Notes: generated by a model from the letters alone, not told the origin. Shown: positions 4,400 through 44,354, counted from the stretch's first letter. The stretch is 64,000 nt of DNA from Candidatus Anderseniibacteriota bacterium (GCA_021414205.1 JAIOOW010000002.1:215062-279061), one strand, 5' to 3'. Made by a program: numbers and translations.

Positions 4400-5341
4400 A
4401 TGAAAATTATTGTTACAGGCGGAGCAGGATTTATAGGCAGTCATCTTATAAAGCGATTACTCGACAGAGGAGACTCCGTTATTTGCGTTGATAACTTTTT
4501 TACCGGACAACGAAAAAATATAGAACAGTTTTTACATAACCCAAATTTCTCCCTTATAGAACACGACATCGTTCAGCCGTTGGAGGGCGTAGAGGCGGAT
4601 CAAATCTACAACCTTGCATGCCCGGCATCCCCAGTGCACTACCAATTCAATCCAATTAAGACAGTGAAAACTTCGACGATTGGGATGATTAATATGCTGG
4701 GGCTGGCAAAAAGGTGCGGGGCAAGAATTCTACAAGCGTCAACGTCGGAAGTATACGGCGACCCGCACGAGCATCCGCAAAAAGAAACCTATTGGGGTAA
4801 TGTAAATACGATCGGCCCGCGCAGCTGTTACGACGAAGGCAAACGAGTTGCAGAAACGCTCTGCATGGATTACCACCGAGAACATGGCTTGGATATCCGC
4901 ATTATCAGAATTTTCAACACCTACGGGCCGAACATGCATCCCGAAGATGGCCGAGTAGTGAGCAATTTTATCGTTGAAGCGTTGGCTAATAAGCCCATTA
5001 CCATATATGGAGACGGCACCCAGACACGATCCTTTTGCTATGTCGATGACTTAGTAAACGGCATCATGGCAATGATGGATCAAGATGGATTTATCGGACC
5101 GGTGAACTTAGGAAATCCCGTGGAATTTTCGATGAAAGAACTTGCGGAAAAAGTTATCGCACTCACGGGAACATCATCAGAAATCATCTACATGCCGCTC
5201 CCTCAAGACGATCCAAAACAGCGTCAGCCAGATATTTCCGTTGCAAAAGAAAAGCTCCATTGGGAGCCAACAATCAATCTCGAAGAAGGCTTACAGAAAA
5301 CAATCGAATATTTTGAATCACTCTTGACGCAATCGAAATAA
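4400..5341 (+). CDS. uxs: UDP-glucuronate decarboxylase (UDP-xylose synthase), NAD-dependent SDR
   Basis: [10 protein letters not shown] Rossmann motif; [36 protein letters not shown] catalytic region typical of UXS/ArnA-type decarboxylases. Confidence 0.85.
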
Positions 5342-5404
5342 TAAGATAGGGTTGGCATCTCGTTCTTTTACCTATTTCGCGTACTACTCAATGAAAGGTG
5401 AGCT

Positions 5405-5662
5405 ATGCCACTGTGGTCAAGCATCGCTCCCAATGTACTGGCAGCGTGCGAAGAAATTGAAGACTATTGGAAAAAATACGGGTACAGGATAGTGGGATGG
5501 AAGATGGCTAATACTCGTACGATATATTACACAGTCATCAACCCCAAGAATGTCTGCAGGAAATTTCGCGTCAGCAATCACCTCCCCCGAGACGCTACGG
5601 AATGGGAATTAGCTGAATGCTCGAACGGAGTAATCATTCACAGCAAATTCATTGAACGTTGA
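5405..5662 (+). CDS. hypothetical protein (85 aa)
   Basis: AAAGGTGAG RBS, own terminator; no family recognised. Confidence 0.5.
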   Translation: MPLWSSIAPNVLAACEEIEDYWKKYGYRIVGWKMANTRTIYYTVINPKNVCRKFRVSNHLPRDATEWELAECSNGVIIHSKFIER

Positions 5663-5664
5663 CG

Positions 5665-5706
5665 AGCCCCTACCTGGCACATGTCAGATACGGGGCTTCT
5701 TTTTTA
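5665..5706 (+). terminator. rho-independent terminator (stem AGCCCC/GGGGCT with a long loop, then T-run)
   Basis: GC stem 5665-5670 / 5692-5697 followed by TCTTTTTTA; lies between convergent genes. Confidence 0.5.
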
Positions 5707-6132
5707 TCTCACACAATCAGGGCCGGCTGCAGAGACGGTAATGTTTTGCCACGCGATAACACTCTTATCCGCCGCACTTAAGATTTCAATACTTGCCGAA
5801 CCTTCCGGAATAGAACATGGAATTTGAATACTTGCAGTTCCTGCAAAAAATGGGGTCTCTTTTAATACTTGAACACCCTGCTTTGATCGCACCGCTACTT
5901 GCGCTTGCTGAGATGGAACTGAGCTTGGAGTATCCCAGCGAATAACAGTCTGCTCTCCTGCCTGCAATGGGCTCACGATATGCATTCCGATGCGCGTGAT
6001 TGTCGTATCATTTGAGCGAATAGATACGTTACCGATGATATTGATCAATATACCAATAAATAGCAGACAAATAGCCCCTAATCCGAAATATGCCCACCGT
6101 TGCTGTTTCTTATTCTTGTTCATGGGTTGCAC
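5704..6132 (-). CDS. membrane-anchored hypothetical protein
   Basis: N-terminal basic stretch plus TM helix; overlaps the upstream prsW-like gene by 23 nt. Confidence 0.5.
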   Translation of the reverse strand: MQPMNKNKKQQRWAYFGLGAICLLFIGILINIIGNVSIRSNDTTITRIGMHIVSPLQAGEQTVIRWDTPSSVPSQQAQVAVRSKQGVQVLKETPFFAGTASIQIPCSIPEGSASIEILSAADKSVIAWQNITVSAAGPDCVR

Positions 6133-7048
6133 TATATATAGTACGCGCTGATTTATTAGTATTCAACCATGGCGCATTAATGTTCCAAGGAGAATCGGTA
6201 ATCTTCATAGCTCTCTTTAGCATCGCAACATCTGGAGATTCCGGTGCGCGCGGATTCTCCAAAAACGCGCCATCTTGCCGATGAATAATAGAAAACTCCC
6301 GTTTCATAGTCCAGGAGATGAGGACAAAGAGTGCTGCAATTAACACGCAGATTGCATATAATCCGTACCCTATCCCTAACAATAAATCGAATGTCCCATG
6401 CAAGAACCAGGGGATAAGGAAAGCGGGAATGAAAAATTTATTTGGCCGGAATATTTGAAACGTTCCCTGCGCAATGAGGGCGCCCATAAGCCCCGCAAAG
6501 CAGATATGCGCAAGCGTCGAGATAATAAATCGCAAGAAAAAAACGAACACCAAGGTATCGTATTGTTGACTGGTAAGCAAATCATGAAAATACAGCGTAT
6601 TTTCCAATGTTGAAAATCCAAGTCCGACCGCAACTCCGATTAATAATCCATCGAATACCTGATTTATCCTTTTACTTCTCGACATCCAAAATCGCATCGC
6701 TACGTACCGCAGCCCCTCCTCAATCGGAGCAACTATGAAAAATGTAGCAAGCGCAGGCAATAAGACATCGAGTGGGGATAATAGCGGCAAAATTGCACCC
6801 GAATAATAATGCTCCGTTGCAGGAGATATAATCCCCCAAATCTGATCCGCTTTTTTCTCCAGCCAAAATGCGGGCTCAACCAATATAAGTCCGATTCCGA
6901 ACGCCATAGCTACGGTTGTAGGCGGCACGTTCCTGGTGCGATTCCGCAAATACCACATCCACAAGAAAAACCCAGCAGGAAGCAAGCTTAATAAGAATGC
7001 TACGATCGCAATCGAAACGCCCACTGGCAATACAATAGGGTCACCCAT
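6110..7048 (-). CDS. PrsW-family intramembrane metalloprotease
   Basis: Polytopic; APIEEGLRY (EExxK/R-like), FAGLMGA and HGTFD motifs typical of the PrsW/YpdC family. Confidence 0.65.
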   Translation of the reverse strand: MGDPIVLPVGVSIAIVAFLLSLLPAGFFLWMWYLRNRTRNVPPTTVAMAFGIGLILVEPAFWLEKKADQIWGIISPATEHYYSGAILPLLSPLDVLLPALATFFIVAPIEEGLRYVAMRFWMSRSKRINQVFDGLLIGVAVGLGFSTLENTLYFHDLLTSQQYDTLVFVFFLRFIISTLAHICFAGLMGALIAQGTFQIFRPNKFFIPAFLIPWFLHGTFDLLLGIGYGLYAICVLIAALFVLISWTMKREFSIIHRQDGAFLENPRAPESPDVAMLKRAMKITDSPWNINAPWLNTNKSARTIYSATHEQE

Positions 7049-7060
7049 TGATGTAGTATA

Positions 7061-7471
7061 TCACGAGGTGCGAATCAGCGATGACTTGTATTGCTCAGGC
7101 TTATGCGCAGGCAGCCGAACTACTTTGACGTTCGGCTTTCCGATAGTTCCCAAAATCGCCCACACGTCCTCATCGGAGGGTTTTTGATCATACCCCAAGG
7201 CCAATATATCAAAATCAAGATTTTTCAATAATGCGTATGATCTCGGATCTTCATCGCCAAGCACCGCCTCATCAACATCTGGATTTTCTTGAACGGCCTG
7301 CAAGCGTTCCTGTTCTGAAATATGATGTGAACGCTGCTTTTCAATCGAGATAGTTGCATCGCGGGACACCACAACAATCAAATAATCCCCCATCTTTTTC
7401 GCTTCTCGAAATAAAAATTCGTGCCCAGGATGGAGCGGATCAAACGTGCCGAACACGACTATTTTTTTCAT
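7061..7471 (-). CDS. cytidylyltransferase-like nucleotidyltransferase (RibL/TagD-like, HxGH)
   Basis: FGTFDPLHPGHEFL (T/HxGH) motif; overall resemblance to archaeal-type FMN adenylyltransferase / glycerol-3-P cytidylyltransferase. Confidence 0.7.
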   Translation of the reverse strand: MKKIVVFGTFDPLHPGHEFLFREAKKMGDYLIVVVSRDATISIEKQRSHHISEQERLQAVQENPDVDEAVLGDEDPRSYALLKNLDFDILALGYDQKPSDEDVWAILGTIGKPNVKVVRLPAHKPEQYKSSLIRTS

Positions 7472-7473
7472 AT

Positions 7474-7782
7474 CTATTTTGCTGGCGGTATGTAGAATAC
7501 CGAGCTGTTTACTACGGGATTTTTTTTGGCAGACTCTTCCTTAAGAGATGCATACTTCTGGACCTCGGTAAGGGCGGATTTCGCGACAGAGACAGAACTT
7601 TGAACGGTTACTTGTAAATCAGGAGGAATAACGGGCGACTGCAACGCATATACATATACGACAATTGCGGCACACACTCCACCGATAGCAAAGAAGAGTA
7701 TTGATATAATAGACATGCTGTACAATACCACATGCAAAATAGAGTTTTTTATTCGCTGCATGATATTGGAAAAAGAATTCAT
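7474..7782 (-). CDS. small single-TM protein at the 3' end of the pilus operon (PilP-like position)
   Basis: One TM helix; operon context only. Confidence 0.45.
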   Translation of the reverse strand: MNSFSNIMQRIKNSILHVVLYSMSIISILFFAIGGVCAAIVVYVYALQSPVIPPDLQVTVQSSVSVAKSALTEVQKYASLKEESAKKNPVVNSSVFYIPPAK

Positions 7783-7783
7783 A

Positions 7784-8362
7784 TTATTTCAAAATACTAA
7801 TAACAATATCCGCCTCAAGAGAACTCCCCTGAGGAGCATTCGGCAAAGGCGATGTTGCAGGTACGGACGAGAAAAAATTCAGCGCTACAACGTGCGTCGT
7901 ATCGATACTCCACGATGCCACATACAACAAATACGGAAGCTGCTCGATACGATACAAAAATCCCATGAGCGCCGTTGGCGTGCCAGATGCGCTAATGTGA
8001 AAACGAACATCGTCTAACGGGTCGCTTACAGGCGAGCCCTTTGTTGTGTTTTGAGTAACTTGCGGAACTTGGGCAGACACCCCTGCCAATACAGCAGTTC
8101 CCTGGATCGCACGCACCACTTCCGGCAAGCCGTCTCGCCGCACAGTCATTTTTTGCAATGAATCCATTTTACTCTGCGCATCGGATAGCTCCTTCTTCAA
8201 ACGATCTGTTTCCTGCATTTCCTTGGGAGCGGAATCAATACGCTGCTGGCGCATGGCAACATCTGAGCGAATCGAAAGAAGCTTTACGTGCGCAAAACCA
8301 ATAGCAACAAGCGCAACGACGATCAAGATAAGTAAAAAAATATTTGCTTTAGAAAATATCAT
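7784..8362 (-). CDS. pilO: type IV pilus assembly protein PilO-like
   Basis: N-terminal TM plus coiled-coil; immediately downstream of pilN with an ATGA overlap. Confidence 0.6.
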   Translation of the reverse strand: MIFSKANIFLLILIVVALVAIGFAHVKLLSIRSDVAMRQQRIDSAPKEMQETDRLKKELSDAQSKMDSLQKMTVRRDGLPEVVRAIQGTAVLAGVSAQVPQVTQNTTKGSPVSDPLDDVRFHISASGTPTALMGFLYRIEQLPYLLYVASWSIDTTHVVALNFFSSVPATSPLPNAPQGSSLEADIVISILK

Positions 8363-8904
8363 AGAACTCCCCCATTATCTGCTTTTCTCACGATCGTGAA
8401 TACGGCGATTGCATCTGGCGATTGCGCAAAGTTTTGCAGCGGCGCATCAACATGATCTACCCATGGGAGCGATTCAAGCGCATGCTGATACTGCACTACA
8501 ACATCGCCATTAATTGCCTTTCCGGTTACAACTAGCGCTTCAGGATTCTCGGTCAACTCAAGTTTCGTAACTTTAATCCCAGTAGGCACAGCAGCAAATA
8601 GTTCCTGTATATGAATCGCCCAGCGAGGATTAGTAGTAATGCGTCGATCCATTGCCTGAATAACTACATTCAACGAAGAAATACTCTTCTCAACATCCGA
8701 CCGATTCTTCCCCTGCTCTTGCAATCTTGTATCGAGCGAGTTTCGAATAATGATATTTGCCTCTAACGAAGCGCCATATGCTATTAAAACAATCATGCAT
8801 AATGCAAACAACGCAGTTAATAGCGACTGCAACCGATGGCGTGCAACGAGCGCCATTCTTGCTGTTCGAGCTTCGGGAGATAGTAAATTAATTTCTGATT
8901 TCAT
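8359..8904 (-). CDS. pilN: type IV pilus assembly protein PilN
   Basis: N-terminal EINLLSPE (PilN INLLP motif) followed by a TM. Confidence 0.7.
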   Translation of the reverse strand: MKSEINLLSPEARTARMALVARHRLQSLLTALFALCMIVLIAYGASLEANIIIRNSLDTRLQEQGKNRSDVEKSISSLNVVIQAMDRRITTNPRWAIHIQELFAAVPTGIKVTKLELTENPEALVVTGKAINGDVVVQYQHALESLPWVDHVDAPLQNFAQSPDAIAVFTIVRKADNGGVL

Positions 8905-9932
8905 AGAGAAACTACTGTTCGCAGCGCCAGCCCAAGTGCAGTTGCATATCGAACAGATTCTTGAATATTCAATGGGGCATGGGACCGCTCCTTGGCAGAC
9001 AAGATATTAACCCAAGGATTTCCGCGCTCCACATGAATATCTTCAAAATGATGCAAAAATGCCGTATCAAGCCCGGTTAAATTTGAACCTCCGCCTGTCA
9101 TAATAATTTCGCGAACCCTGTGATTCGCATCAATACTGTTATAAAAATCCACAACCCCCTTAATGTCTAGCACCAGCTTGTCGAGCCCTGGCTCAAGCTG
9201 AGGAGTAACCCGCTCAAGCAAGTCAGCTGGAATATTCTGCAAATTCTGCATTAGCTGCTCTCGATCTTGCACGGAAAGTCCTGCTGCTAAATTTTTCACG
9301 CCTTGTTGCAAGCTGGCCGTAAACCTGCTTGCACCTACATCATGCACAATAACATTCGTGGACGTACTTCCGACGTCGACAATAATCACTCCTTGCTTGC
9401 CATATAGCTCCGGCGAGATGAGCGCGCGCACTATTGCTTGGCTCTCCAATTCAAAGGCGGCAACATCTAGCCCAATATCCATTATCACCTCATATAACGG
9501 ATCCACTACTTTTTTCTGGGCAGCGCCCACCTGAACTTCCCTCTTTCCTTCCGCTACCTTATGACCACTGTCCTCGAGAGCCTGCCAATCGATATATACA
9601 CTATCTACGCTAAATGGAATATGCTGAGCAATTTCAAATCGGATCGCCTCCTCAACCTCATCGTCCGACATGTTCGGTAATTCAATAACACGCAAAAACG
9701 ACTGAGTCTCTGGAATAGATACAACAACGGTATCTTTTTTTGAACTATTGATCCTGCAAGAAGATAGCGCCTTCTCAACTGCTTCCTGCATAGCTTTTTT
9801 ATTAATGACAACGCCATTCTCAATAACTCCGGCTGGAATAGTATAAATACATTTTGCAAGCAGGCGACGCACGCTTCCATCGGAAAGCTGCGCGATCTTT
9901 ATCGTTTGATCCGATATGTCTAAACCAATCAT
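8901..9932 (-). CDS. pilM: type IV pilus assembly ATPase-fold protein PilM
   Basis: MIGLDISDQTIKIAQL... actin-like fold matches the PilM family; start taken as the internal ATG at 9932 because the upstream extension overlaps the preceding gene. Confidence 0.85.
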   Translation of the reverse strand: MIGLDISDQTIKIAQLSDGSVRRLLAKCIYTIPAGVIENGVVINKKAMQEAVEKALSSCRINSSKKDTVVVSIPETQSFLRVIELPNMSDDEVEEAIRFEIAQHIPFSVDSVYIDWQALEDSGHKVAEGKREVQVGAAQKKVVDPLYEVIMDIGLDVAAFELESQAIVRALISPELYGKQGVIIVDVGSTSTNVIVHDVGASRFTASLQQGVKNLAAGLSVQDREQLMQNLQNIPADLLERVTPQLEPGLDKLVLDIKGVVDFYNSIDANHRVREIIMTGGGSNLTGLDTAFLHHFEDIHVERGNPWVNILSAKERSHAPLNIQESVRYATALGLALRTVVSL

Positions 9933-9951
9933 AGGATGTATACCTATTGTA

Positions 9952-11322
9952 CTATTTTTGCTGCCAAGACAGAAACTGATATTCCCCTGTTGTCGGAAAA
10001 TACGGAGGGGGACCGTACAGTAAATTCGAATCATACGAAGACGTTCCGCTTTGATATCCTCCTATAACTGCATTGCTCCCATTCACCCATGTAGTAACTG
10101 GTACGAGATTGCTTGCTACCATTCCATACGTAGTAATAGAGTTTCGCAATATATAAGATCCAGTATTGTAATATCGTCGGCCAAACCTGCCATGCTGCGC
10201 TACGAACGCTCCATCCATTTCTAGGTTATTTGCCGCACCGGAATTCGGAATAAGTACATTGCCTTGCGACACCGCGCCGAACTCGCGTGTGCCGTCTTTG
10301 ACGCCGCCATACGTAACACTTCCGTTTATAATAATATCCGTATAGGTACTTGGGTTTTCCGGAAACTTTCCCGATGCAATAGTTACCCTGCTTGCAACAG
10401 TACCCTCAACCCACACAGAATCCTCAAAAAACAATATCCCGCCAGATGGAACAGTTGCCGACGTAACCAGGGACTCCTTCTTAATATCATACGAGGAGCT
10501 CACCCAGCCATCATCAGGGAAATAAGAAGAGATGTTGGATTGCTTACTCGTTACTTTATACAGTGAGTACGTATTATTCGAGTTAAATACAATATGGTAC
10601 CCATATCCTCCAGATGAGCCAAAATACGTATTCGCAGATTGAGCAGCTGCTTTCATGGAAACCAAATCCGCAGTAAGCCCGGCATAATCTACTGAAGAAA
10701 CAGGATATTGCCACAAGGCACTGTTTCCGCCGGACCCCCATACTCCTGGTTTCGTAGGATTCCCGCTGCATCCTTGTGTTGATTTGCACGTATATGTCGC
10801 CTTCGCACTTGTCATCGTGCTATCCGACTGACCATCCATGCGAATTCCGCCATTCGAATGCACTGCCCCCGAAATTGTTTCACCAAACCAAACATCGTCA
10901 TTGAGCAGCATTGCATATTTCGCAAATGACGGCTTTCCGTACGTTGCCTGCAATGTCACATCGCGAACCGGCGCAGTGGCCGTGTGACCAACAGATGTGA
11001 TTTGCACAATAGTGCTCCCATTTTGGGGAGGGACAAATGTAAGCGTATATGTTCCCAACACACCCTTTAGCTGATCGTATACCTGGTTTTGAACAGAGGA
11101 AAAATCGTTTCCGTTATGTGCCAAGCGCCATCGAGCATAATTCAATCCTGATTCCGCAACTTGAAATGCAGTTTCGTCTTGCGCCGTGAGCCCCCCTTGC
11201 TGATACTGCTGATTCGTCACTCCACCCAGCGACACGAACATCACACCGATCATCATGACCAGCACAACCATCATAATTAAAATCGAACCGGATTGTTTTT
11301 GCTTGCTCAGATTTATCTCCAT
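9952..11322 (-). CDS. large PilX-N-domain-like pilus-associated secreted protein (456 aa)
   Basis: N-terminal hydrophobic anchor then AFQVAESGLNYARWRL (PilX N-terminal-like); Ser/Thr/Gly/Asn-rich beta-rich remainder. Confidence 0.55.
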   Translation of the reverse strand: MEINLSKQKQSGSILIMMVVLVMMIGVMFVSLGGVTNQQYQQGGLTAQDETAFQVAESGLNYARWRLAHNGNDFSSVQNQVYDQLKGVLGTYTLTFVPPQNGSTIVQITSVGHTATAPVRDVTLQATYGKPSFAKYAMLLNDDVWFGETISGAVHSNGGIRMDGQSDSTMTSAKATYTCKSTQGCSGNPTKPGVWGSGGNSALWQYPVSSVDYAGLTADLVSMKAAAQSANTYFGSSGGYGYHIVFNSNNTYSLYKVTSKQSNISSYFPDDGWVSSSYDIKKESLVTSATVPSGGILFFEDSVWVEGTVASRVTIASGKFPENPSTYTDIIINGSVTYGGVKDGTREFGAVSQGNVLIPNSGAANNLEMDGAFVAQHGRFGRRYYNTGSYILRNSITTYGMVASNLVPVTTWVNGSNAVIGGYQSGTSSYDSNLLYGPPPYFPTTGEYQFLSWQQK

Positions 11323-12641
11323 GATGGAATGCTAAACAGCATCGTTTGCCAAAATGGCGGAATCGGATAGCCATATGTAAGAGGACTGATATACAAAAAT
11401 CCCAAGAATATAACGATACATGCCGTAATCACAAATTCTTTTTTGCGCACCACATGCTTATCCATCCACCAAATGGCAATAATGATCGAAAACACTAGTG
11501 GCGTAAGATAATGATATAAAAACAGTACGCGAGGAACGCGCATAAGTGGAACATACGCCCAGAGATAACCTACAATCATCAGCCAGACGTATCCCGAATT
11601 CTTGATAGATATTTTTTTCCTTTGAATACCCGATACGATCATAGCAAGCATCGCAATGCAGAAAAATATGAATCCCCCCCACCACACTGCCGGATTACCC
11701 AATAGGTACACAAACTGATTCCCGGAATTTCCTTGCCAATAAAATACCGGACGAATCATAAACGGCCACGTCCACCATTTACTTCCATATGGATGCCCGG
11801 CCGTTAAATTATAGTTTGCAGAAATCATTTCTTGGTGAATAGAGATAATGTCTTGTGCAAAATTTCCTGTTGGAACCCCCCATACATCCCCAGAGCCCGG
11901 AAGAGTAAGTATTGAAAAATGAATTGCCCAAGCACCTAGATACACCACTATTGCACACACTCCCACGATAATCGCCTTTGCTGCCCACGATGCGACTACT
12001 ACCCTTTTTTTCTTCCACGCTTCAACAATCCACAATATAATCACAAGCCCCCCTGCAATAAGGCCGGTAAATTTTATTCCCATAGAAGCGCCTGCCAGGA
12101 TTCCCGTAAGAATTACAAATATCCATGATGCTAGCTTGCTACGGACCTTAATGCTCGCAATTGCCGATGCAATAGTCCCAAACGTTGCAACAAGCAGAAT
12201 GTTATCCATCAAAATAAATCTAGATTCAACGATGAGTGCATTATCGAGCGCAATGGCAACGCCACCTAACAACGCAAACAATCTTGAGACATTCATCAGA
12301 CGCAACAATATAAATATCACTCCTGCTAATACCGTCCCAAATAATGCGGGTACCAACCGAATGCCCGCAATAGGAACGTTCGTGAACGGCTGACCAATAT
12401 ACTCAAATGGAAACAAGCCGTTATACCCAGACAGGTACGCTCCAAATGCTATAACTAATTTTCCAATCGGTGGATGAATATCGAAAAATCGCTCATGCGT
12501 ACAACAGTATGCAGAAACAAATTTTCCAAAATGCACTTCATCAAATACGACTTGCGGGATATACGACAAAAACAACACACGAGCAAGCAGCGCAACTATA
12601 ACAACAACTAGTACTGCCAGAATGTCTTTTTTAGTAATCAT
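11313..12641 (-). CDS. dolichyl/polyprenyl-phosphate-mannose protein O-mannosyltransferase (PMT family, GT39, GT-C fold)
   Basis: DEVHFGKF loop-1 motif after the first TM; polytopic about 440 aa typical of bacterial PMT. Confidence 0.75.
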   Translation of the reverse strand: MITKKDILAVLVVVIVALLARVLFLSYIPQVVFDEVHFGKFVSAYCCTHERFFDIHPPIGKLVIAFGAYLSGYNGLFPFEYIGQPFTNVPIAGIRLVPALFGTVLAGVIFILLRLMNVSRLFALLGGVAIALDNALIVESRFILMDNILLVATFGTIASAIASIKVRSKLASWIFVILTGILAGASMGIKFTGLIAGGLVIILWIVEAWKKKRVVVASWAAKAIIVGVCAIVVYLGAWAIHFSILTLPGSGDVWGVPTGNFAQDIISIHQEMISANYNLTAGHPYGSKWWTWPFMIRPVFYWQGNSGNQFVYLLGNPAVWWGGFIFFCIAMLAMIVSGIQRKKISIKNSGYVWLMIVGYLWAYVPLMRVPRVLFLYHYLTPLVFSIIIAIWWMDKHVVRKKEFVITACIVIFLGFLYISPLTYGYPIPPFWQTMLFSIPSWR

Positions 12642-13228
12642 AGATTTGTTTTAAGATTCCTAAGCTGAACTTGCGATTGAAGGGTAACTGCTGGCGGATC
12701 CTGGGTAGTATCCGCATCAATGGTAAGGGTAAATGAAATATACGTAATACTCGCAATGTTCGTTCCCGATACCTGGGATTGGTTCGTAGGATAGTTACTT
12801 CCATAATAGTAAAATACTGGATTTGCGCCATTTCGAACAGACCGAGCAATGGTGGTTACTTTCTCCTGAGCAGTATTATAGGTAGCCGGGCTTCCACTTG
12901 GCTTTGTAACCCCTCGAACTAAATCGGTTCCGACGAGCTCGTATCTGATTCGCTCAATCGACGCGTCGCTATCTGCATTTGCATAAAAAATAAAACGCGA
13001 CGACGATGCTTCTATAATAGGAAATGCCCCTGTATCTGACGGCTGAGCAGAACGAATTTCGTGGGTCATTCTCTTTAATTGCACACGAGCAGTTTCATCT
13101 GCAAGCTCTTGTTCAAACGTCGACCGATATATCGGCAAGGCGCCTGCCATAAATCGGATAAGCCCCATAATAAGCAAACTTGATATGGCAATTACTACCA
13201 CTACTTCAACTAATGTAAACCCTTTCAT
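12638..13228 (-). CDS. type IV prepilin-like protein (class III signal peptide, 196 aa)
   Basis: MKG|FTLVEVVVVIAISSLL prepilin leader with G at -1 and hydrophobic helix. Confidence 0.8.
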   Translation of the reverse strand: MKGFTLVEVVVVIAISSLLIMGLIRFMAGALPIYRSTFEQELADETARVQLKRMTHEIRSAQPSDTGAFPIIEASSSRFIFYANADSDASIERIRYELVGTDLVRGVTKPSGSPATYNTAQEKVTTIARSVRNGANPVFYYYGSNYPTNQSQVSGTNIASITYISFTLTIDADTTQDPPAVTLQSQVQLRNLKTNL

Positions 13229-13229
13229 A

Positions 13230-14549
13230 TCAAGAACCTGCCAACTGAATAGTACTATTCACATTCCCATCAACCGTAATAGTGCCCGTATACACTTGGT
13301 ATCCGCTCGCAGTAGCAGTTACGGCATAATCGCCAGATTGCGTCATCGTATTCAAGAACACCTGTCCAGTTGCACCTGTTTGCTTGGTTACATCAAACCC
13401 GTTTTTAACCACCTCGACCGCAACACCAGATACTGACTGCCCGCTCGCATTTACAACAGTTATATGCGCAGACAATGCCTGATGCGGCATCAAGGTTACC
13501 GTAAGCGTAGTATCATCGCCAGGCTTCAACACAAGAGGAACAGGCACGCTTGTATCAGAAATATCATATCCTGTTGCAGTACCGTCAACTGAAAGCGCAT
13601 ATGAATCCCACGTCATGTTTTGATACGCAATGGATCCGCCGGAATCAGTGGTGTCATTGTGAGAGAACAGATATACGGGTTGCGCAGTTGCGTCTGTCCC
13701 AATTTTCTTTGTCCCAGTAATACTAAATGGGACAGATCCCAAGGCAGCCCCATTCTGATCCACCGTCTTAATTGTAAGCTTGCTTGAGGCGTCTATCGCA
13801 AATGTTTTATTCGTCACCGATCCGGCAATTGCATTCAGTCGAGAATGGTCGGCATCAGGAGTAAAATTAGCAGAAGATGCATAAGTTTGTTCTGTTGTAT
13901 ACCCCGACTTCGAAACGGTTAACTGATATGTGCCAGAGGAAACTGGTAAACCAGGTATAACGACTTGCCCACTGGAGTTTGTATATGTTGTAAGATTAAC
14001 AGTCGGCGTCACGGAGCTATTCGTAAGCTGCACAGTAGCTGAATCGACTCCTGTTCCCGCAGAATTCAACGCCTGAAACACTAACGTACCAAGCGAATCA
14101 CCACCCTCGATACCGCTCGGAGCGACCTGTGCGATGAGCAATACTGATCTGCTTGGCAAAGAGCTGGCCCACGTAACCTCCACTCGAGCCTGTTTATAAT
14201 CCGTATTGACCGTGTCCGGGGGATTACTCGTTGCAGTTCCATCATATGAATCGTCGATGTATCGTATATCGGTTGCGACTGTAAACGTTTGGCCGTTTCT
14301 GGTAACTTGCTGTGTCTGAGGAATAGAACCTGACGGTATTCCACCAACGGTTCCAACGCTTGCATAGGGCAAATTACGAATCTGCTCCATTTTCTCATTC
14401 GCCAGTCCAGTAGCAATAATGCGCAACTGACCGTCATGCGAAGCTTTTAATGTAAGCGTGATCATGGAAAAGATACCGACAACTACCGTTCCGAGCACAA
14501 ACCCCGCAATAACAACTTCTAGCAATGTAAACCCAGATTTAGATGACAT
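13230..14549 (-). CDS. large prepilin-like protein (439 aa) with Ig-like/carboxypeptidase-regulatory-like repeats
   Basis: MSSKSG|FTLLEVVIAGFVL class III leader; Thr/Ser-rich beta-domains (SGYTTEQTY, SGYQVYTGTITV). Confidence 0.75.
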   Translation of the reverse strand: MSSKSGFTLLEVVIAGFVLGTVVVGIFSMITLTLKASHDGQLRIIATGLANEKMEQIRNLPYASVGTVGGIPSGSIPQTQQVTRNGQTFTVATDIRYIDDSYDGTATSNPPDTVNTDYKQARVEVTWASSLPSRSVLLIAQVAPSGIEGGDSLGTLVFQALNSAGTGVDSATVQLTNSSVTPTVNLTTYTNSSGQVVIPGLPVSSGTYQLTVSKSGYTTEQTYASSANFTPDADHSRLNAIAGSVTNKTFAIDASSKLTIKTVDQNGAALGSVPFSITGTKKIGTDATAQPVYLFSHNDTTDSGGSIAYQNMTWDSYALSVDGTATGYDISDTSVPVPLVLKPGDDTTLTVTLMPHQALSAHITVVNASGQSVSGVAVEVVKNGFDVTKQTGATGQVFLNTMTQSGDYAVTATASGYQVYTGTITVDGNVNSTIQLAGS

Positions 14550-15750
14550 TCACCAAACTATAAATAGGAGAAATAATTGATATTGCCAATGCCCCTACCG
14601 CAAGCCCAATCGCAATCATCAACACCGGCTCCATAATCGATGTGAGGTTTTTCATCGTTTGATCTACTTCACCTTCATAAAACGACGCAACCTCCTTCAG
14701 CACTTCTGCGAGCTCTCCTGTTTGTTCGCCAACACTCATAATACTCACCACAAGAGGAGGAAACAATCTCGCATAATTCAAAAAATAATCGCTCAATAAA
14801 TTGCCTTTCTTTACATGTTCCTCAGCTCCAATAAAAATGCTGGCATACACAGGATTCGCAGTATTTTTTCCCATAATAAGCAACGCTTCCGTAAATGCCA
14901 CTCCGCTCGATAATAATGAACTTAAGTTTCTACTCAAGCGAGCTACGTTTATCTGTTTTATAATCGGACCAACCACCGGAGAGATCAAGAATGCTCTTGC
15001 AATAAGCATACGGCCCGATGTCGTCGTTGACATGAGGCGGAATCCAATACTAAGAAGTACGCACACGCCCAGCGCAATGTACCAATAGGAGGAAATCCAT
15101 GAACTGGTGCCCAACAATATGCGGGTCATTAACGGCAACTGAACGTGAAATCCATTAAAGATATCTACCAGCTTTGGTACAACGAAAATCATCATTGCGG
15201 CCCCCACTGAAAAAAGCGCCGTAATGATGACGGCCGGATACATCATCCCGCCCTGAATCGCTCTGCGCAATTCAAATTCTTTTTGAAGCTGCAACGCTAA
15301 TATCTCCAGCGTTTCTTGCAATTTTCCCGTTGCTTCTCCAACGCCCACAAAACTTACGAATAGGCTTGGAAATGCTTTAGGGTATGGTCGCATACTTTCC
15401 GAAAGCGTCTTTCCCTTTTCAATTCCTTCCACCACGCTTGTAATGGAGTTTTTCAACGTTAGATTTTTCGTCTGGTTTTTCAGCGTTTCCAGCGACTGCT
15501 TCACATCAAGACCCGCTCGCAACATGAGCGCAAAATATCGTGCAAATAATACCCTTTCCAAAACAGGAACATGGGAAATGATGCCGTTTATAGACATCGC
15601 CGAAGATTCTTTATGCTCCTTATATGATGTCAGCAAAATCCCCTCTTTGAGCAAATCTTGCCCAAGTACCGCATGCGATACCGCATCGCGAACCCCTGTT
15701 GCGCGCTCCCCAGTCCTTGCATGCACTCCCTTAAAAATATACTGAGCCAT
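14539..15750 (-). CDS. pilC: type IV pilus platform protein PilC (GspF family)
   Basis: Two GspF repeats, 3-4 TM, 403 aa. Confidence 0.9.
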   Translation of the reverse strand: MAQYIFKGVHARTGERATGVRDAVSHAVLGQDLLKEGILLTSYKEHKESSAMSINGIISHVPVLERVLFARYFALMLRAGLDVKQSLETLKNQTKNLTLKNSITSVVEGIEKGKTLSESMRPYPKAFPSLFVSFVGVGEATGKLQETLEILALQLQKEFELRRAIQGGMMYPAVIITALFSVGAAMMIFVVPKLVDIFNGFHVQLPLMTRILLGTSSWISSYWYIALGVCVLLSIGFRLMSTTTSGRMLIARAFLISPVVGPIIKQINVARLSRNLSSLLSSGVAFTEALLIMGKNTANPVYASIFIGAEEHVKKGNLLSDYFLNYARLFPPLVVSIMSVGEQTGELAEVLKEVASFYEGEVDQTMKNLTSIMEPVLMIAIGLAVGALAISIISPIYSLVNVI

Positions 15751-15754
15751 ATAA

Positions 15755-17497
15755 TTATTCTTTTGCTACTCGAAGAACTTCTTCTAAACTGGTAATTCCG
15801 CGCGCTACCTTGATAATACCATCCTCTAACATGCTTACCATTCCCTGCTCTTCCCGGGCAGCTGTTTCAAGTTCATGAGCCGTGATATTTCCCGTGACCA
15901 TCTTTTGTAAAGATGGAGTCATTTCAAACATTTCATGGATTCCTTTCCTACTCTTGTATCCCTCATGACACCTGTCGCATCCCACAGCTTCGAATAACGA
16001 CACATCTTCCCATGTTCCGCCTCCTTGAACCACTCCCTCTTGTTTTAATAATTCAAGCATATGATCAGCATCGACAATATCCGCAATGCTTGTTTTCATA
16101 GCATCCGTTACGCGCACTTCTTTTTTACAAGAGTCGCATAATTGTCGAACCAATCGCTGCGCAACAACGACGTTGATTGTAGACGCAAGCAAGAATGGTT
16201 CCACTTTCATGTCCATTAATCGCGGAATTGCACCCGTAGCACTATTAGTATGCAATGTAGACAATACCAAATGGCCGGTTAAAGCAGCATTTACTGCCAA
16301 TGATGCAGTTTCTTGGTCTCGAATTTCTCCAACCATAATAATATCCGGATCTTGACGAACAAGCGCTCGCAAACCATTTGAAAACGTCAATCCGATTTTT
16401 GGCTGAACCTGAGTTTGGTTCACGCGCTTCATCCGATATTCAATCGGATCTTCTATGGTACTGATATTCACGTCTTTAGTATTGAGCTCTCGCAGTACTG
16501 CATACAACGTAGTCGTTTTTCCAGATCCCGTTGGACCTGTAACCAAAATCATTCCATTGGGCTTTGCAATATTGTTGCGAAACATGTCTATATTTCTTTT
16601 CGACAGCCCAATTCGATCTATCGTGAGTCCATTTCCCGATTCATCTAGCAGACGCATGACGATTTTTTCTCCATCGAATACCGGGAGCGTAGATACGCGA
16701 AACGCCACATTATAATCATCGCTCTCCATTTTAAAGCGACCATCCTGAGGCAGCCGGTGTTCGTCAATCTTTAAATTGCTTAAAATCTTTATGCGCGCAA
16801 CCACTCCAGCAAGCACCGTTTTTGGCAACACCATCATATCGTGCAATATCCCGTCTATACGATATCTCACAACAACGGCATCTTCAGTAGGCTCTATATG
16901 AATATCTGAAGCATCTTTTCCAATAGCATGCCGCAACACTGCATCAACTATTTTAATAATGGGCAGGTCTTCAGCAACCTTCGATAAATCAGTATCCGTA
17001 TTACTCATTCTTACTCCTCGAGCCTCTTTCATAATCTGATCAAGGTCCGCCTCCAGCGACCCTGCATATTTCGGAAACACGTCCCTAATCGCAGAAGAAC
17101 TTGCGATGCTTACGATAACTGCAACATCTACTTTTTTGTGAATAAACTCAATAATCTGCCGATCTGCCGGATCTTCCATTGCAATAAGTAATCCTGCGTC
17201 CGTTTTATCATACGCAATCACCATGTGCTGGCGCGCAGTAGATTCTGGAATAATTTCCAATACCTCTTTTTTTATTTGGATAGACCTCAAATCTACGTAT
17301 GAAAGGCTCATTGCATTTGCATATGCCTTTGCATAATCCTCTTCACCGACCGCAAATTTGCCAATCAGCGTATTCTTGAGCGTCTCTTTTCCTTCTTTTG
17401 CCTCCACAATTGCGCGCGCAGCATCTTCTGCAGAAATTTTCTGCAGCTCAACAAGGATATGCAATACTTTTTCGTCAACCCCCTCTGCCATACTCAC
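15755..17497 (-). CDS. pilB: type IV pilus assembly ATPase PilB (GspE family)
   Basis: Walker A GPTGSGKTT, GspE N-domain; GTG start, with an in-frame ATG at 17491 preceded by a TGCTATACT -10. Confidence 0.9.
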   Translation of the reverse strand: MSMAEGVDEKVLHILVELQKISAEDAARAIVEAKEGKETLKNTLIGKFAVGEEDYAKAYANAMSLSYVDLRSIQIKKEVLEIIPESTARQHMVIAYDKTDAGLLIAMEDPADRQIIEFIHKKVDVAVIVSIASSSAIRDVFPKYAGSLEADLDQIMKEARGVRMSNTDTDLSKVAEDLPIIKIVDAVLRHAIGKDASDIHIEPTEDAVVVRYRIDGILHDMMVLPKTVLAGVVARIKILSNLKIDEHRLPQDGRFKMESDDYNVAFRVSTLPVFDGEKIVMRLLDESGNGLTIDRIGLSKRNIDMFRNNIAKPNGMILVTGPTGSGKTTTLYAVLRELNTKDVNISTIEDPIEYRMKRVNQTQVQPKIGLTFSNGLRALVRQDPDIIMVGEIRDQETASLAVNAALTGHLVLSTLHTNSATGAIPRLMDMKVEPFLLASTINVVVAQRLVRQLCDSCKKEVRVTDAMKTSIADIVDADHMLELLKQEGVVQGGGTWEDVSLFEAVGCDRCHEGYKSRKGIHEMFEMTPSLQKMVTGNITAHELETAAREEQGMVSMLEDGIIKVARGITSLEEVLRVAKE

Positions 17498-17515: not shown

Positions 17516-17986
17516 TTACTGTACGGTAATTGTTGCGTGAAATGCTGCATGCAAATGGTCATGCATGCCGAACGTTCCAACTTTCACAAATGTAAATCGA
17601 TAAAAGTCGCCGGGCGCAAGCGCATGCTTTGAATCGAATCCTGGCAGATCAGTATGGATCGGGTGCGGATCGGACGCTGGCCAGTGAGGCGAAGTGCCCG
17701 TATTTTTAAACGTTATCGTTGTTCCAGATTTTACCGTAATAGCATTTGGGACAATTCCAGCATCAGTCATTTCAACAACCGGATTTTCCGCTGCCATTAC
17801 ATCAGGTGTTATACTTGGCGCTTGTTGCACCAAAACCCCCGACGGAGAAGACGACGGCTCAGACGTAGGATTGGCATGAATATTTATAGCCTCATCATCT
17901 TGCCCTCTATGACTCATAACGTAGGCACCTGCGCCTATAATAATAACGGCGATAATAAGTAACGATATTGTAGTTGATGTTTTCAT
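17516..17986 (-). CDS. secreted/anchored cupredoxin-fold-like protein lacking Cys
   Basis: N-terminal TM, Pro/Ser linker, beta-sandwich-like C-domain with His-rich motifs (HWPASDPHPIH, FGMHDHLH) but no cysteine. Confidence 0.45.
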   Translation of the reverse strand: MKTSTTISLLIIAVIIIGAGAYVMSHRGQDDEAINIHANPTSEPSSSPSGVLVQQAPSITPDVMAAENPVVEMTDAGIVPNAITVKSGTTITFKNTGTSPHWPASDPHPIHTDLPGFDSKHALAPGDFYRFTFVKVGTFGMHDHLHAAFHATITVQ

Positions 17987-25971: not shown

Positions 25972-26592
25972 TTGCCCCATACTAGCTATATGATATCGTT
26001 CACATTAGATAGCATCATCACCCTTATTCGAACGTACGGCTATGAGATTATTTTCCCGCTATCTATTATAGAAGGTCCTATTGTTGCGGTACTATCTGGC
26101 TTCATCGCATCACTGGGAAAATTAAATATATTCTTTGTATTCCTCGTACTACTGGCAGGAGATATTGTGGGGGATACTATACACTATGCGATTGGCAGAT
26201 GGGGACGCCACAACTTTATTAAAAAATGGGGAAAGTATATTGGCGTCACGGAAGAAAAAATACAGGCGCTGGAAAAATATTTCGAAAAACATAATTGGAA
26301 AATTCTTGCATTTGGAAAAACCCAGCCAATCGGATCCGCAATTCTTATTTCTGCCGGGCTTGCTGGCATGCCCTACTGGTCATACATCTGGTACAACATC
26401 TTAAGCACTATTCCCAAAATATTCATCTTAGAAATGATTGGGTACTACTTTGGCGACGCATACTACAAAATAAGCAGCCTATTAAGCTATGCAGGAGTCG
26501 CTTCTCTTATTATTGCAATCCTCTTTATCGGACTCTATCTGTGGTTCCAATCCTATCTCAAAAAAAGAGGTCCGAATATTGATAAGATATGA
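25972..26592 (+). CDS. DedA-family membrane protein
   Basis: SNARE-associated/DedA topology and motifs (EGPIVAV..GF, GKTQPIG). Confidence 0.8.
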   Translation: MPHTSYMISFTLDSIITLIRTYGYEIIFPLSIIEGPIVAVLSGFIASLGKLNIFFVFLVLLAGDIVGDTIHYAIGRWGRHNFIKKWGKYIGVTEEKIQALEKYFEKHNWKILAFGKTQPIGSAILISAGLAGMPYWSYIWYNILSTIPKIFILEMIGYYFGDAYYKISSLLSYAGVASLIIAILFIGLYLWFQSYLKKRGPNIDKI

Positions 26593-27632
26593 AAAAGCTG
26601 GTCATCGTCACAGACACATGGCATCCGCAGGTAAATGGGGTAGTAACATGCATTGAAAACATTCTGCCGTCCCTCGAAAAAAATAATTTCGAAGTTACTA
26701 TTATCCACCCAGGACTGTTTTGGACGGTGCCGCTGTTTTTCTATCCAGAAATCAGATTATCACCCATTCCATATAGAAAAATGAAAAAAATGCTCGCAGA
26801 ACTTGCGCCCGATTACATTCACATCATAACGGAAGGACCCCTTGGTCTTTCTGCCAGAATTTTATGCCAGCAAAAAGAATGGAAATTCACCACTTCGTAT
26901 CACACAAATTTTTCTCAATACATTCAAATGAGAATTGGGCCGTTATTTGGAACAGTGAACGCATACATCACCTGGTTCCATAATGCAGGAAGTACGACAA
27001 TGGTGGGAACAGACAGTCTTAAAAAGGAGCTTTCAGAGTATGGAGTAAAGAATATTTCAATTTGGCCGTTAGGCGTTGATACAAAACGCTTTACGAAAAA
27101 CGAGGATACGGCTCACATGCCAGACGAAATACAACATCTCGCAAAACCGATTTTTGCATATTTTGGCAGAGTTGCAGTTGAAAAGAACATTGAAGAATTC
27201 CTACAATTGACCCTACCAGGAACAAAGCTGGTCATTGGCGAAGGGCCCCAACAAGAATCTCTGCAAGAAAAATACCCAGACACCATCTTTACAGGATACA
27301 AACAAGGAAAAGATCTCATTGATTGGCTGTCACACTGCAATGTATTAGTATTCCCCTCTCTTACCGATACCTTCGGATTAGTTATCATCGAAGCGCTCGC
27401 AATGGGAATTCCAGTTGCGGCTCATGATGTTACCGGACCAAAAGACATCATCTCACAAGGCGTAGACGGCTACTTAGGCGACAATCTCGCACAAGCAGCC
27501 ATACAGTGCCTCAAGCTTAACCCGAGCGCTTGCAGACAAAAAGCAATGCAATACTCATGGGAACACTCTACTGAACAATTTATGAGCCATGTAGTACCCG
27601 CCCACGAACCGGAGACCGACGAGTTAACATAA
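26589..27632 (+). CDS. glycosyltransferase family 4 (GT-B)
   Basis: C-terminal FPSLTDTFGLVIIEALAMGIPV (EX7E-type motif). Confidence 0.8.
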   Translation: MKKLVIVTDTWHPQVNGVVTCIENILPSLEKNNFEVTIIHPGLFWTVPLFFYPEIRLSPIPYRKMKKMLAELAPDYIHIITEGPLGLSARILCQQKEWKFTTSYHTNFSQYIQMRIGPLFGTVNAYITWFHNAGSTTMVGTDSLKKELSEYGVKNISIWPLGVDTKRFTKNEDTAHMPDEIQHLAKPIFAYFGRVAVEKNIEEFLQLTLPGTKLVIGEGPQQESLQEKYPDTIFTGYKQGKDLIDWLSHCNVLVFPSLTDTFGLVIIEALAMGIPVAAHDVTGPKDIISQGVDGYLGDNLAQAAIQCLKLNPSACRQKAMQYSWEHSTEQFMSHVVPAHEPETDELT

Positions 27633-28293: not shown

Positions 28294-28309
28294 ATTGGGA
28301 TAGTTACCA

Positions 28310-29032: not shown

Positions 29033-29042
29033 AGCGCTAACG

Positions 29043-29279: not shown

Positions 29280-29345
29280 AATTGTTCACTTAATAGTAAC
29301 TTTGGCATTGTACCAAATATATCCATTTCCCGCTATACTTTTTAC

Positions 29346-30963: not shown

Positions 30964-30974
30964 TATGCGCATAT

Positions 30975-32507: not shown

Positions 32508-32531
32508 GCTATTTTAGGACAATCTTAAAGA

Positions 32532-35319: not shown

Positions 35320-35337
35320 TAGAGAGCATACTGTCGT

Positions 35338-43045: not shown

Positions 43046-43055
43046 ATAGCTTTCT

Positions 43056-44336: not shown

Positions 44337-44354
44337 ACGAAATGAATACGAAAT

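Follow-up and report, generated by a model that had tools for sequence, protein, structure and literature searches.

A probable GspI-GspJ-GspK-like minor pilin trio, with a proposed role at the pilus tip, in a predicted type IV pilus operon of Candidatus Andersenbacteria

CPR bacteria account for a large share of bacterial diversity and live in attachment to other microbes; their best-supported organelle for attachment and DNA uptake is the type IV pilus (T4P). The closest described relatives of the proteins considered here are the core minor pilins GspI-GspJ-GspK/PilV-PilW-PilX (PDB 3CI0; PMC9934059), in which the K subunit is distinguished by its lack of Glu5 (PMC9934059), and the PilABC tip complex of Streptococcus sanguinis, a three-gene minor pilin set with one member that likewise lacks this residue (PMC9934059). 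Thermus thermophilus ComZ carries a solenoid inserted before its last pilin strand and contacts DNA through two lysines (PDB 6QVI; PMC6561018). Modular pilins, as defined by Raynaud et al. 2021, join a pilin module through a short loop to a domain that is not specific to pili; they are represented in many CPR lineages and have been argued to be exposed at the tip (PMC8179133). Cultivated CPR bacteria split their T4P genes over several loci, with some machinery loci lacking pilT, pilD and a major pilin. In TM7x there are four such loci, of which locus two has a single pilin and no retraction ATPase, the major pilin PilA2 lies apart in locus three and locus one alone has PilD listed (PMC11623550). 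PilD and PilT are nevertheless widespread in CPR genomes (PMC6744442).

We analysed a 64-kb stretch of DNA (hereafter the window) containing 13 co-directional, tightly packed genes on the minus strand with intergenic gaps of -23 to +19 nt. This locus is most likely the assembly operon of a monoderm-type T4P of Candidatus Andersenbacteria (CPR/Patescibacteria). In order of transcription its genes and the domains of the two larger pilin-like proteins are:

15755..17497, minus strand: pilB, assembly ATPase, 580 aa, first gene of the operon (T2SSE PF00437, E 3.9e-131, plus MshEN)
14539..15750, minus strand: pilC, platform protein, 403 aa (T2SSF PF00482, E 1.2e-53, two stretches)
13230..14549, minus strand: 439-aa modular prepilin, I/PilV-type, leader MSSKSG/FTLLEVV
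14115..14549, minus strand: its pilin module, aa 1-145 (leader, alpha1 helix 9-58, four-stranded sheet 79-142)
13233..14090, minus strand: its three tandem transthyretin/CarboxypepD_reg/CnaB-like beta-sandwiches, aa 154-252, 253-356 and 357-439
12638..13228, minus strand: 196-aa prepilin, leader MKG/FTLVEVV, GspJ/PilW by position and size
11313..12641, minus strand: GT39-family PMT membrane glycosyltransferase, 442 aa (PMT PF02366, E 9.6e-43; PMT_4TMC PF16192, E 1.9e-33)
9952..11322, minus strand: 456-aa pilin-like protein of the ComZ/GspK type, class III leader degenerate
10933..11322, minus strand: its pilin domain, aa 1-130 (helix 3-69, sheet 77-129)
9988..10932, minus strand: its ice-binding-protein-like beta-solenoid, aa 131-445, with invariant Cys179 and Cys185
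8901..10034, minus strand: pilM, longest ORF 377 aa (PilM_2 PF11104, E 2.8e-37)
8359..8904, minus strand: pilN, 181 aa (PilN PF05137, E 1.4e-4, slightly below the cut-off), syntenic in all related loci
7784..8362, minus strand: pilO/GspM-like bitopic protein, 192 aa (weak, sub-cut-off GspM NF040576 match, E 1.5e-7)
5704..7782, minus strand: tail of the co-directional block, four genes (102-aa TM protein, cytidylyltransferase-like protein, PrsW intramembrane protease, 142-aa TM protein), gaps -23 to +12 nt

The coordinates and sizes given for the three pilin-like ORFs by a first-pass annotation of this DNA were reproduced. The trio is encoded in one operon with the PilB/PilC/PilM machinery, in frames that overlap or nearly abut: pilC starts 4 nt past the end of pilB and overlaps the start of the 439-aa gene by 11 nt, while the true start of pilM is likely at 9932, 19 nt past the stop of the 456-aa gene, giving the 343-aa protein found in the gene calls on two related loci (L001 and L002). 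The pilO-like gene keeps its place after pilN in related loci, and the four tail genes are syntenic in Andersenbacteria loci; the cytidylyltransferase-like gene matches NCBIfam cyt_tran_rel (E 1.2e-15), with L001 and L002 orthologues matching Pfam CTP_transf_like, and the PrsW gene is recognised by both Pfam and NCBIfam.

A six-frame regular expression scan of the whole 64-kb window for class III leaders returned six raw matches, of which two are N-terminal in an ORF with a hydrophobic stretch behind them, as such a leader requires. These two textbook leaders belong to the 439-aa and 196-aa proteins, each having the complete arrangement of a short charged leader ending in Gly, some 20 hydrophobic residues and Glu at +5, and both genes sit directly downstream of pilC. 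With both of the window's N-terminal leaders at this spot, their placement is not attributable to chance, and the scan revealed no fourth prepilin in the window. The 456-aa protein shows the pattern in degenerate form only, with an invariant Gly and no Glu5; the PilX-N-like anchor previously ascribed to it has no match to the PilX_N family, although the N-terminus does resemble a degenerate class III leader.

Predicted structures of the 439-aa and 456-aa proteins both display the lollipop fold of pilins, a 50-67-residue N-terminal alpha1 helix on an antiparallel pilin-type beta-sheet (pLDDT ~89-90), and their fold matches are the T2SS pseudopilins GspI and GspK. Modelling of 13230-14549 and 9952-11322, which the first-pass annotation had proposed as a check, thus recovers a pilin helix in both and rules out for both the scenario of proteins without one. 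That they are unrelated surface or cell-wall proteins adjoining pilus genes has next to no probability: NCBI names them only 'carboxypeptidase regulatory-like domain-containing protein' and 'hypothetical protein', and the 456-aa protein has no Pfam match, but the modelled helices, the class III leaders, the frame overlaps with pilC and pilM and the synteny across CPR classes all argue otherwise.

The 439-aa protein is a modular pilin in the sense of Raynaud et al., consisting in the predicted structure of a GspI/PilV-like pilin module with an I-type fold, a floppy low-pLDDT linker (aa 143-153) and three beta-sandwiches. Pfam searches match CarboxypepD_reg PF13620 (E 1.1e-15, two stretches), SpaA prealbumin-like PF17802 (E 2.4e-6) and, weakly, N_methyl, bearing out the carboxypeptidase-regulatory-like repeats noted earlier. 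An alignment of 58 sequences contains no invariant or near-invariant Lys in aa 154-439, so by sequence the isopeptide arrangement of CnaB domains (Lys-Asn/Asp plus a catalytic acid) is lacking and the resemblance to CnaB is one of fold only. In Gram-positive surface proteins the transthyretin/CnaB-like fold chiefly serves as a stalk. An adhesin role, as in the pilin-adhesin fusion suggested earlier, is plausible, but the added domains are all stalk-type and a distinct terminal binding domain is absent. The architecture is not new, since PF13620-pilin fusions are already catalogued, are common and rank among the 15 commonest modular pilin architectures (PMC8179133). S. sanguinis PilB (vWA) and PilC (lectin) share the plan of a short pilin module, a flexible linker and non-pilus-specific domains, whereas the modules added here are three transthyretin/CnaB-like stalk domains with no recognisable terminal binding domain (PMC8179133). 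The protein belongs to a CPR family with 197 matches that carries the first of the two NCBI names above.

The 456-aa protein has no Pfam or NCBIfam matches. Its Gly12 is invariant in all 42 homologues covering that residue and is followed by G/S-I-L-I-M-T and a hydrophobic helix in which +5 is never Glu, a pattern matching that reported for ComZ (PMC6561018). The missing Glu5 and the bulky extra domain are those of a K-type subunit, and the combination of a GspK-like pilin domain with an ice-binding-protein-like triangular beta-solenoid is that of ComZ, though the two share only 13% sequence identity and the host here is a CPR monoderm. A strong match of the pilin domain is S. sanguinis PilA, which has been described as I-like rather than K-like (PMC9934059), and for this reason the K-type call relies on the absence of Glu5 and on the bulky insert. 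The family comprises 831 matches, with more than 50% identity among the best 120 of the 831, and the solenoid and the alpha1 helix are equally conserved (mean pairwise identity 0.57-0.64).

The 196-aa prepilin matches N_methyl PF07963 above the cut-off, and Pfam, NCBIfam and PDB profile searches match its alpha1 region only. Its orthologues in 21 loci have an invariant C-terminal RN inside the consensus QVQLRNLKTNL. We regard it, on position and size, as a candidate J-type subunit. As 196 aa is normal for a GspJ-type minor pilin and PF13620 pilins are common, the label 'unusually large' given to these proteins holds in a relative sense at most.

Across several CPR classes the order I-type pilin, ~200-aa pilin and K-type protein after pilB-pilC is conserved, in loci labelled Andersenbacteria, Pacebacteria, Moranbacteria, Jacksonbacteria, Paceibacterota and Saccharimonadia. 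Two Saccharimonadia-labelled loci (L033 and L034) encode, directly upstream of the trio, one or two classic GspG-like pilins whose mature length is 135-150 aa; these pilins carry GGFTLLELLIVIVIIGILALLIIPN, contain the sequence ...IIGILALLIIPN..ARDTQRKTDL... and belong to a family of 960 matches. None of the trio resembles a major pilin of this kind (~120-180 aa mature, GspG/PulG-type N-terminus). Additional giant prepilins, the largest of 891 aa, occur in some relatives, and one locus alone (L030) encodes a 294-aa prepilin judged from its sequence to be a GspH-like candidate.

Motif and Pfam scans upheld the reported absence of pilD, pilT and a short major pilin from the window. The 64 kb contain no GxGDxK motif of pilD and a single T2SSE Walker A, that of pilB; the long ORFs of the window yielded neither Peptidase_A24 nor a second T2SSE ATPase by Pfam, and no Peptidase_A24 gene was present in the window or the flanks examined. 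A further 6 kb beyond the left edge of the window (L039) are also devoid of a pilin. Neither the window nor the regions up to 10 kb from the trio in any Andersenbacteria locus examined encode a major pilin, PilD, PilT or an H-type (GspH/FimU) minor pilin, and these partners are accordingly assumed rather than seen; we infer a distant major pilin, PilD and PilT in this genome. The TM7x arrangement, with its machinery locus two devoid of a retraction ATPase and PilA2 encoded separately, is similar (PMC11623550).

The conserved order and the classic major pilins that directly precede the trio in L033 and L034 lead us to read the three proteins as an I-J-K-type complex and not, as the first-pass annotation had it, as occupying the place of a compact major pilin, and this is consistent with the I- and K-type folds. 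They are probably the core minor pilins, the counterpart of GspI-GspJ-GspK (PilV-PilW-PilX), forming what would be a tip and priming complex that displays its domains at the tip. Like that set they are three consecutive pilin genes in I-J-K order with a middle subunit of about 200 aa; here however there is no H-type gene, the I-type subunit has three extra beta-sandwiches, the K-type insert is a beta-solenoid where that of GspK is an alpha-helical domain, the envelope is monoderm with no secretin and the J subunit is a candidate. TM7x PilX1 and PilX2 are comparable in being large minor pilins of a CPR host that bear accessory domains at the C-terminus and lack a predicted PilD signal, and are proposed tip proteins, but their domains are a beta-jelly-roll and a seven-bladed propeller in place of the solenoid and transthyretin-like repeats (PMC11623550).

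Such a complex would nucleate filament assembly on the PilC/PilMNO platform and remain at the pilus tip. The 456-aa K-type subunit may be the first to enter, its beta-solenoid capping the fibre as has been suggested for ComZ; the proposed consequence of its missing Glu5 is that nothing can dock above it. The 196-aa J-position and 439-aa I-type subunits would pack their alpha1 helices beneath it, and PilB would then polymerise under the complex a small major pilin presumably encoded elsewhere in the genome. The flexible arm of three beta-sandwiches and the solenoid would be shown at the distal end, in a position to touch a host surface, a glycan or DNA.

Construction of the shaft from the 196-aa and/or 439-aa prepilin, giving a thick domain-decorated pilus with no compact major pilin, appears improbable to us. 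It would account for the absence of a short prepilin from the window, the 6 kb to its left and the 10 kb around the trio in the Andersenbacteria loci examined, and the 439-aa gene does occupy the slot directly after pilC that holds the major pilin in Com operons, with giant prepilins added in some relatives. Yet the pilin module of this protein is I-type, L033 and L034 encode both the trio and classic major pilins, each of the three proteins is well conserved (mean pairwise identity 38-64% by region), pilin genes are usually scattered in CPR genomes (PMC11623550, PMC6744442) and the absence relates to ~70 kb of inspected genome. Because no short pilin, PilD or PilT lies within 10 kb of the locus in the Andersenbacteria genomes examined, there is a slim chance that Andersenbacteria pili dispense with a small major pilin and build their shaft from the large prepilins of the operon, O-glycosylated by its own GT39 PMT, which if true would make a domain-decorated type IV filament with no counterpart among those solved to date. 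Still less probable is that the machine makes only a short pseudopilus piston of the type II secretion/Com kind: the fold matches to GspI and GspK, the weak GspM match of the pilO-like protein and the lack of pilT would fit, but the locus has PilM/PilN alignment proteins and an MshEN domain in its PilB, features typical of T4aP, ordinary major pilins adjoin the trio in relatives, CPR bacteria lack an outer membrane and a secretin for secretion (PMC6744442) and long pili are visible on CPR cells (PMC11623550).

A separate matter is whether the tip complex serves chiefly as a DNA receptor for natural competence and nucleotide scavenging, in which the ComZ-like 456-aa protein would bind DNA, or as a host adhesin, and the former seems to us possible but rather unlikely. 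CPR genomes widely encode competence systems (PMC6744442), but TM7x second-pilus (T4P-2) mutants retained wild-type competence (PMC11623550). The high conservation of the solenoid suits an invariant ligand and L003 has a ComEC gene ~7 kb downstream of its trio, but the window contains no ComEC or ComEA gene. As the solenoid is mildly acidic (computed pI 5.6) DNA binding is without positive support, and we know of no general link between ice-binding-protein-like solenoids and DNA.

Read as a tip complex the trio is a known design that leaves current models of type IV filaments standing, with the solenoid design of ComZ extending beyond Thermus. It would give I-type and K-type tip roles to two widespread but poorly annotated CPR families, and makes its subunits concrete candidates for the molecules touching host or DNA.

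The freshest lead is the PMT gene, which overlaps its neighbours by 4 and 10 nt and, among the loci compared, stands between pilin genes in Andersenbacteria only. Its product is a GT39 PMT protein, with the PF02366 match spanning 3-244 of 245 profile positions and the loop-1 Asp-Glu motif in FDEVHFGKF (aa 33-41), and its score of 32 bits against an NCBIfam equivalog cut-off of 800 marks it as a distant family member. Glycosyltransferases are known beside pilin genes, namely TfpW (a GT-C arabinosyltransferase) and TfpO/PilO in P. aeruginosa and PglL in Neisseria, and the Pgf system reportedly glycosylates S. mutans adhesins. As with TfpW, TfpO and PglL a polytopic membrane glycosyltransferase is encoded within a pilin cluster, which by analogy suggests subunits modified outside the cytoplasm, though the enzyme here differs in being of the GT39 PMT family with PMT and PMT_4TMC domains and a DE motif, a family for which we found no literature report as a pilin modifier. 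Judging by gene position the enzyme probably O-glycosylates at least one of the Ser/Thr-rich subunits of the trio from a polyprenyl-phosphate sugar donor, which points to a possibly new and testable route of pilin glycosylation.

The two large pilin-like proteins of the window, of 439 and 456 aa, are encoded together with a 196-aa prepilin on the minus strand in a run of 13 co-directional genes spaced by -23 to +19 nt. These three proteins (the trio) are most likely core minor pilins, equivalent to I-J-K subunits, of a type IV pilus in a monoderm CPR bacterium. The genes of the run are:

15755-17497, minus strand: pilB (T2SSE, E 3.9e-131)
14539-15750, minus strand: pilC (T2SSF, E 1.2e-53)
13230-14549, minus strand: 439-aa I-type prepilin (class III leader, PF13620)
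12638-13228, minus strand: 196-aa J-position prepilin (class III leader, N_methyl)
11313-12641, minus strand: PMT-family glycosyltransferase (PF02366, E 9.6e-43; PF16192, E 1.9e-33)
9952-11322, minus strand: 456-aa K-type protein (no Pfam or NCBIfam match)
8901-9932, minus strand: pilM (PilM_2, E 2.8e-37)
8359-8904, minus strand: pilN (PilN, slightly below cut-off)
7784-8362, minus strand: pilO/GspM-like (weak GspM match)
7474-7782, minus strand: 102-aa membrane (TM) protein (no family evidence)
7061-7471, minus strand: cytidylyltransferase-like (NCBIfam cyt_tran_rel; CTP_transf_like recorded for orthologues)
6110-7048, minus strand: PrsW intramembrane protease (PrsW)
5704-6132, minus strand: 142-aa membrane (TM) protein (no family evidence)

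NCBI entries of a Candidatus Andersenbacteria MAG (locus tag K8Q97_01190) are identical to the 439-aa and 456-aa proteins, which places the window in a CPR/Patescibacteria bacterium. The four-gene block at 5704-7782 (minus strand) abuts pilMNO with almost no gaps. Most of its genes keep their synteny with the pilus operon in Andersenbacteria loci, although the one for the 102-aa protein was detected in only six. Directly upstream of pilB lies a gene for a 156-aa cupredoxin-like, membrane-anchored protein (17516-17986, minus strand), an arrangement shared with the related locus L002, and as the roughly 18 nt between the two genes leave little room for a promoter the operon may begin further upstream.

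Searching the full 64 kb in six frames with a regular expression for class III leaders yielded six raw matches, of which only two stand at the N-terminus of an ORF with a hydrophobic stretch behind them: MSSKSG/FTLLEVV of the 439-aa protein and MKG/FTLVEVV of the 196-aa protein, both encoded directly after pilC. The proteins and leaders had been accurately described in the first-pass annotation. The absence of pilD, pilT and a short major pilin from the window was likewise borne out, with no PilD-type GxGDxK motif in the window, a single T2SSE Walker A motif (that of pilB) and, in those window ORFs that were scanned, neither a Peptidase_A24 nor a second ATPase; no pilin was found in six extra kb to the left of the window on a second contig. 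The leader of the 196-aa prepilin comprises three residues only, shorter than the 5-7 residues usual for T4a leaders, and an MKG or MRG start is kept in several of its orthologues.

AlphaFold2 models of the two large proteins, each built from a deep alignment, are confident (pLDDT 89.3 and 89.9), and both show an N-terminal pilin helix followed by a pilin-type sheet, which contradicts the possibility that they are unrelated surface proteins lacking such a helix. In the 439-aa model, an alpha1 helix (aa 9-58) and four beta-strands (aa 79-142) are connected through a linker of low confidence (about aa 143-153) to three beta-sandwich domains (154-252, 253-356 and 357-439), in agreement with the earlier description of a pilin fused to beta-domains; an adhesin role is plausible. 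Pfam matches comprise two stretches of CarboxypepD_reg (PF13620, E 1.1e-15) and a SpaA prealbumin-like domain. We rejected a reading of the sandwiches as isopeptide-bonded CnaB domains because the family alignment contains no conserved Lys within them. Mean pairwise identity falls from 0.49-0.55 in the pilin module to 0.38-0.39 in the distal domains. The protein is acidic, with Ser/Thr making up 25% of residues overall and 31% in the first sandwich.

The model of the 456-aa protein consists of a helix (aa 3-69), a pilin-type sheet (aa 77-129) and a beta-solenoid that continues to the C-terminus, reproducing the architecture published for ComZ, in which a GspK-like pilin domain carries an ice-binding-protein-like solenoid and which has been argued to fit only at the pilus tip (PMC6561018). 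The PilX-N-like anchor proposed for this protein does not hold as a family match, since neither PilX_N nor DUF3494 was matched in Pfam or NCBIfam at E 0.1 or below. In 47 homologues the protein starts with a charged leader whose last residue, Gly, is invariant; G/S-I-L-I-M-T and a hydrophobic helix come next, and Glu never occurs at +5. The family is strongly conserved, with >50% identity among the 120 best matches, and has 64 invariant positions, which include Cys179 and Cys185. Elsewhere, the window encodes a VKOR and DsbA-like pair (51320-52367, plus strand) and a second DsbA-like thioredoxin (28310-29032, minus strand); CPR-enriched disulfide machinery has been connected with the folding of pilins (PMC6744442).

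The 196-aa protein is a canonical prepilin whose globular part was not matched by Pfam, NCBIfam or PDB profile searches. When a profile built from 22 orthologues was compared with PDB sequences and each member was scanned with Pfam, the alpha1 helix alone was matched. Near the C-terminus the orthologues have the consensus QVQLRNLKTNL, in which RN is invariant. The protein is assigned to the J (GspJ/PilW) slot from position and size only.

In total, 37 related loci were collected by looking up three distant homologues and by scanning species-representative genomes, the closest locus in the latter being L005 (96% identity). By blastp these loci, labelled Andersenbacteria, Pacebacteria, Moranbacteria, Jacksonbacteria, Paceibacterota and Saccharimonadia, preserve the order pilB, pilC, then orthologues of the 439-aa, 196-aa and 456-aa proteins, followed in most by pilM(NO). 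No prepilin of <180 aa, PilD or second ATPase was found within 10 kb in the Andersenbacteria loci examined, except for two apparently truncated orthologues of the 196-aa prepilin; a PilD pattern match in L024 (17397-18323) was discarded as a false positive, its sequence resembling a ROK-type sugar kinase. Directly upstream of the trio, L033 and L034 encode one or two classic pilins of 135-150 aa (mature), which begin GGFTLLELLIVIVIIGILALLIIPN and carry the motif ARDTQRKTDLRAIQ. They belong to a family of ~143-aa proteins with 960 matches, many annotated GspG-like. The named matches listed for the L034 major pilin were Saccharibacteria/Saccharimonadia or plain 'bacterium' and none carried an Andersenbacteria label, which is uninformative on that lineage. 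Where a major pilin is encoded nearby the trio thus accompanies it and does not replace it, and the earlier proposal that the large proteins stand instead of a compact major pilin is not supported.

Several Andersenbacteria loci contain one to three further giant prepilin-like genes of 300-890 aa. Extra ORFs of 774-891 aa lie between the 196-type and PMT genes in L010 (5949-8528), L024 (360-3035), L020 (331-2655) and L021 (3653-5980); those of L024 and L020 were positive in the scan for class III leaders and those of L010 and L021 resemble the window pilins by blastp only. The minor-pilin repertoire therefore seems to grow and shrink from one species to another. The Jacksonbacteria locus L030 has a second pilin set upstream of the trio (4714-7950), with a 294-aa pilin of GspH-like appearance, two further pilins (164 and 177 aa) and a 428-aa protein that, judging from its repetitive sequence, may be another solenoid-type cap; this operon may encode two tip complexes.

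I-J-K subunits nucleate assembly and end at the pilus tip (PMC9934059). We infer that the trio forms such a tip complex, in which the 456-aa protein, without Glu5, would cap the fibre with its solenoid and the J-position and I-type subunits would stack below it, while PilB, acting on the PilC/PilMNO platform, would polymerise a small major pilin presumed to be encoded elsewhere. Both the three-domain arm and the solenoid would thereby be displayed distally and could bind a host surface, glycan or DNA. Distant partners have precedents: cultivated Saccharibacteria distribute T4P genes across four loci, one machinery locus having a single pilin and no retraction ATPase and the major pilin of a second pilus being encoded separately, and their large PilX1 and PilX2 lack a predicted PilD signal (PMC11623550). 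PilD and PilT occur widely in CPR, which lack PilQ (PMC6744442).

That the large prepilins themselves build the shaft with no compact major pilin is very improbable; a nearby short pilin is absent across the whole class, and about 70 kb of this genome were examined, but the I- and K-type folds, the high conservation of all three proteins and the co-occurrence of real major pilins with the trio in relatives argue against it. Those major pilins, together with PilM/PilN and a monoderm envelope, also make a short secretion-type pseudopilus unlikely. A tip serving chiefly as a DNA receptor, as proposed for ComZ, is compatible with the I-J-K model and would explain why the solenoid is as highly conserved as alpha1 in its family, but the solenoid is mildly acidic (pI 5.6) and we regard this role as rather doubtful. 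CPR 'Pam' pili are assembled from Ig-like pilins by donor-strand exchange (bioRxiv 10.64898/2026.03.03.709456), a reading rejected here because of the class III leaders, alpha1 helices and PilB/C/M operon.

Solenoid pilins of the ComZ type and tip complexes of the I-J-K type are both established. Pilins with extra domains have been defined as 'modular pilins'; PF13620 fusions count among their 15 commonest architectures, and the examples listed include many from CPR (PMC8179133). New here are the placement of two large, poorly annotated CPR families, as I and K subunits, in a single conserved operon, with a triple beta-sandwich arm on the I subunit, and, among the pilin genes of Andersenbacteria loci, a PMT gene encoding a GT39 membrane glycosyltransferase with an intact FDEVHFGKF Asp-Glu motif.

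The reading frame of this PMT gene overlaps both neighbours. The gene immediately precedes the 456-type gene in the Andersenbacteria loci examined, whereas the trio of other CPR classes lacks it. The enzyme may O-glycosylate pilins, and would then be the first of its family described in that role, our literature search having found no PMT-family enzyme acting on them; the closest known analogue is the GT-C enzyme TfpW, encoded beside pilA in some Pseudomonas strains. Small GT2 enzymes in the window weakly resemble polyprenyl-phosphate-hexose synthases and, with the Ser/Thr-rich 439-aa protein, are no more than suggestive of glycosylation.

A dense envelope-glycan cluster occupies 25972-45476, with at least nine GT2/GT4 glycosyltransferases, an FkbM methyltransferase, a ROK kinase, a weakly MmpA-like 510-aa protein and two very large ORFs without Pfam or NCBIfam match (35338-38943, 1201 aa; 40718-43045, 775 aa). 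At 45489-47183 (plus strand) is a ThyX-like ORF of 564 aa, longer than usual for ThyX, whose two Thy1 stretches may reflect a tandem duplication or fusion.
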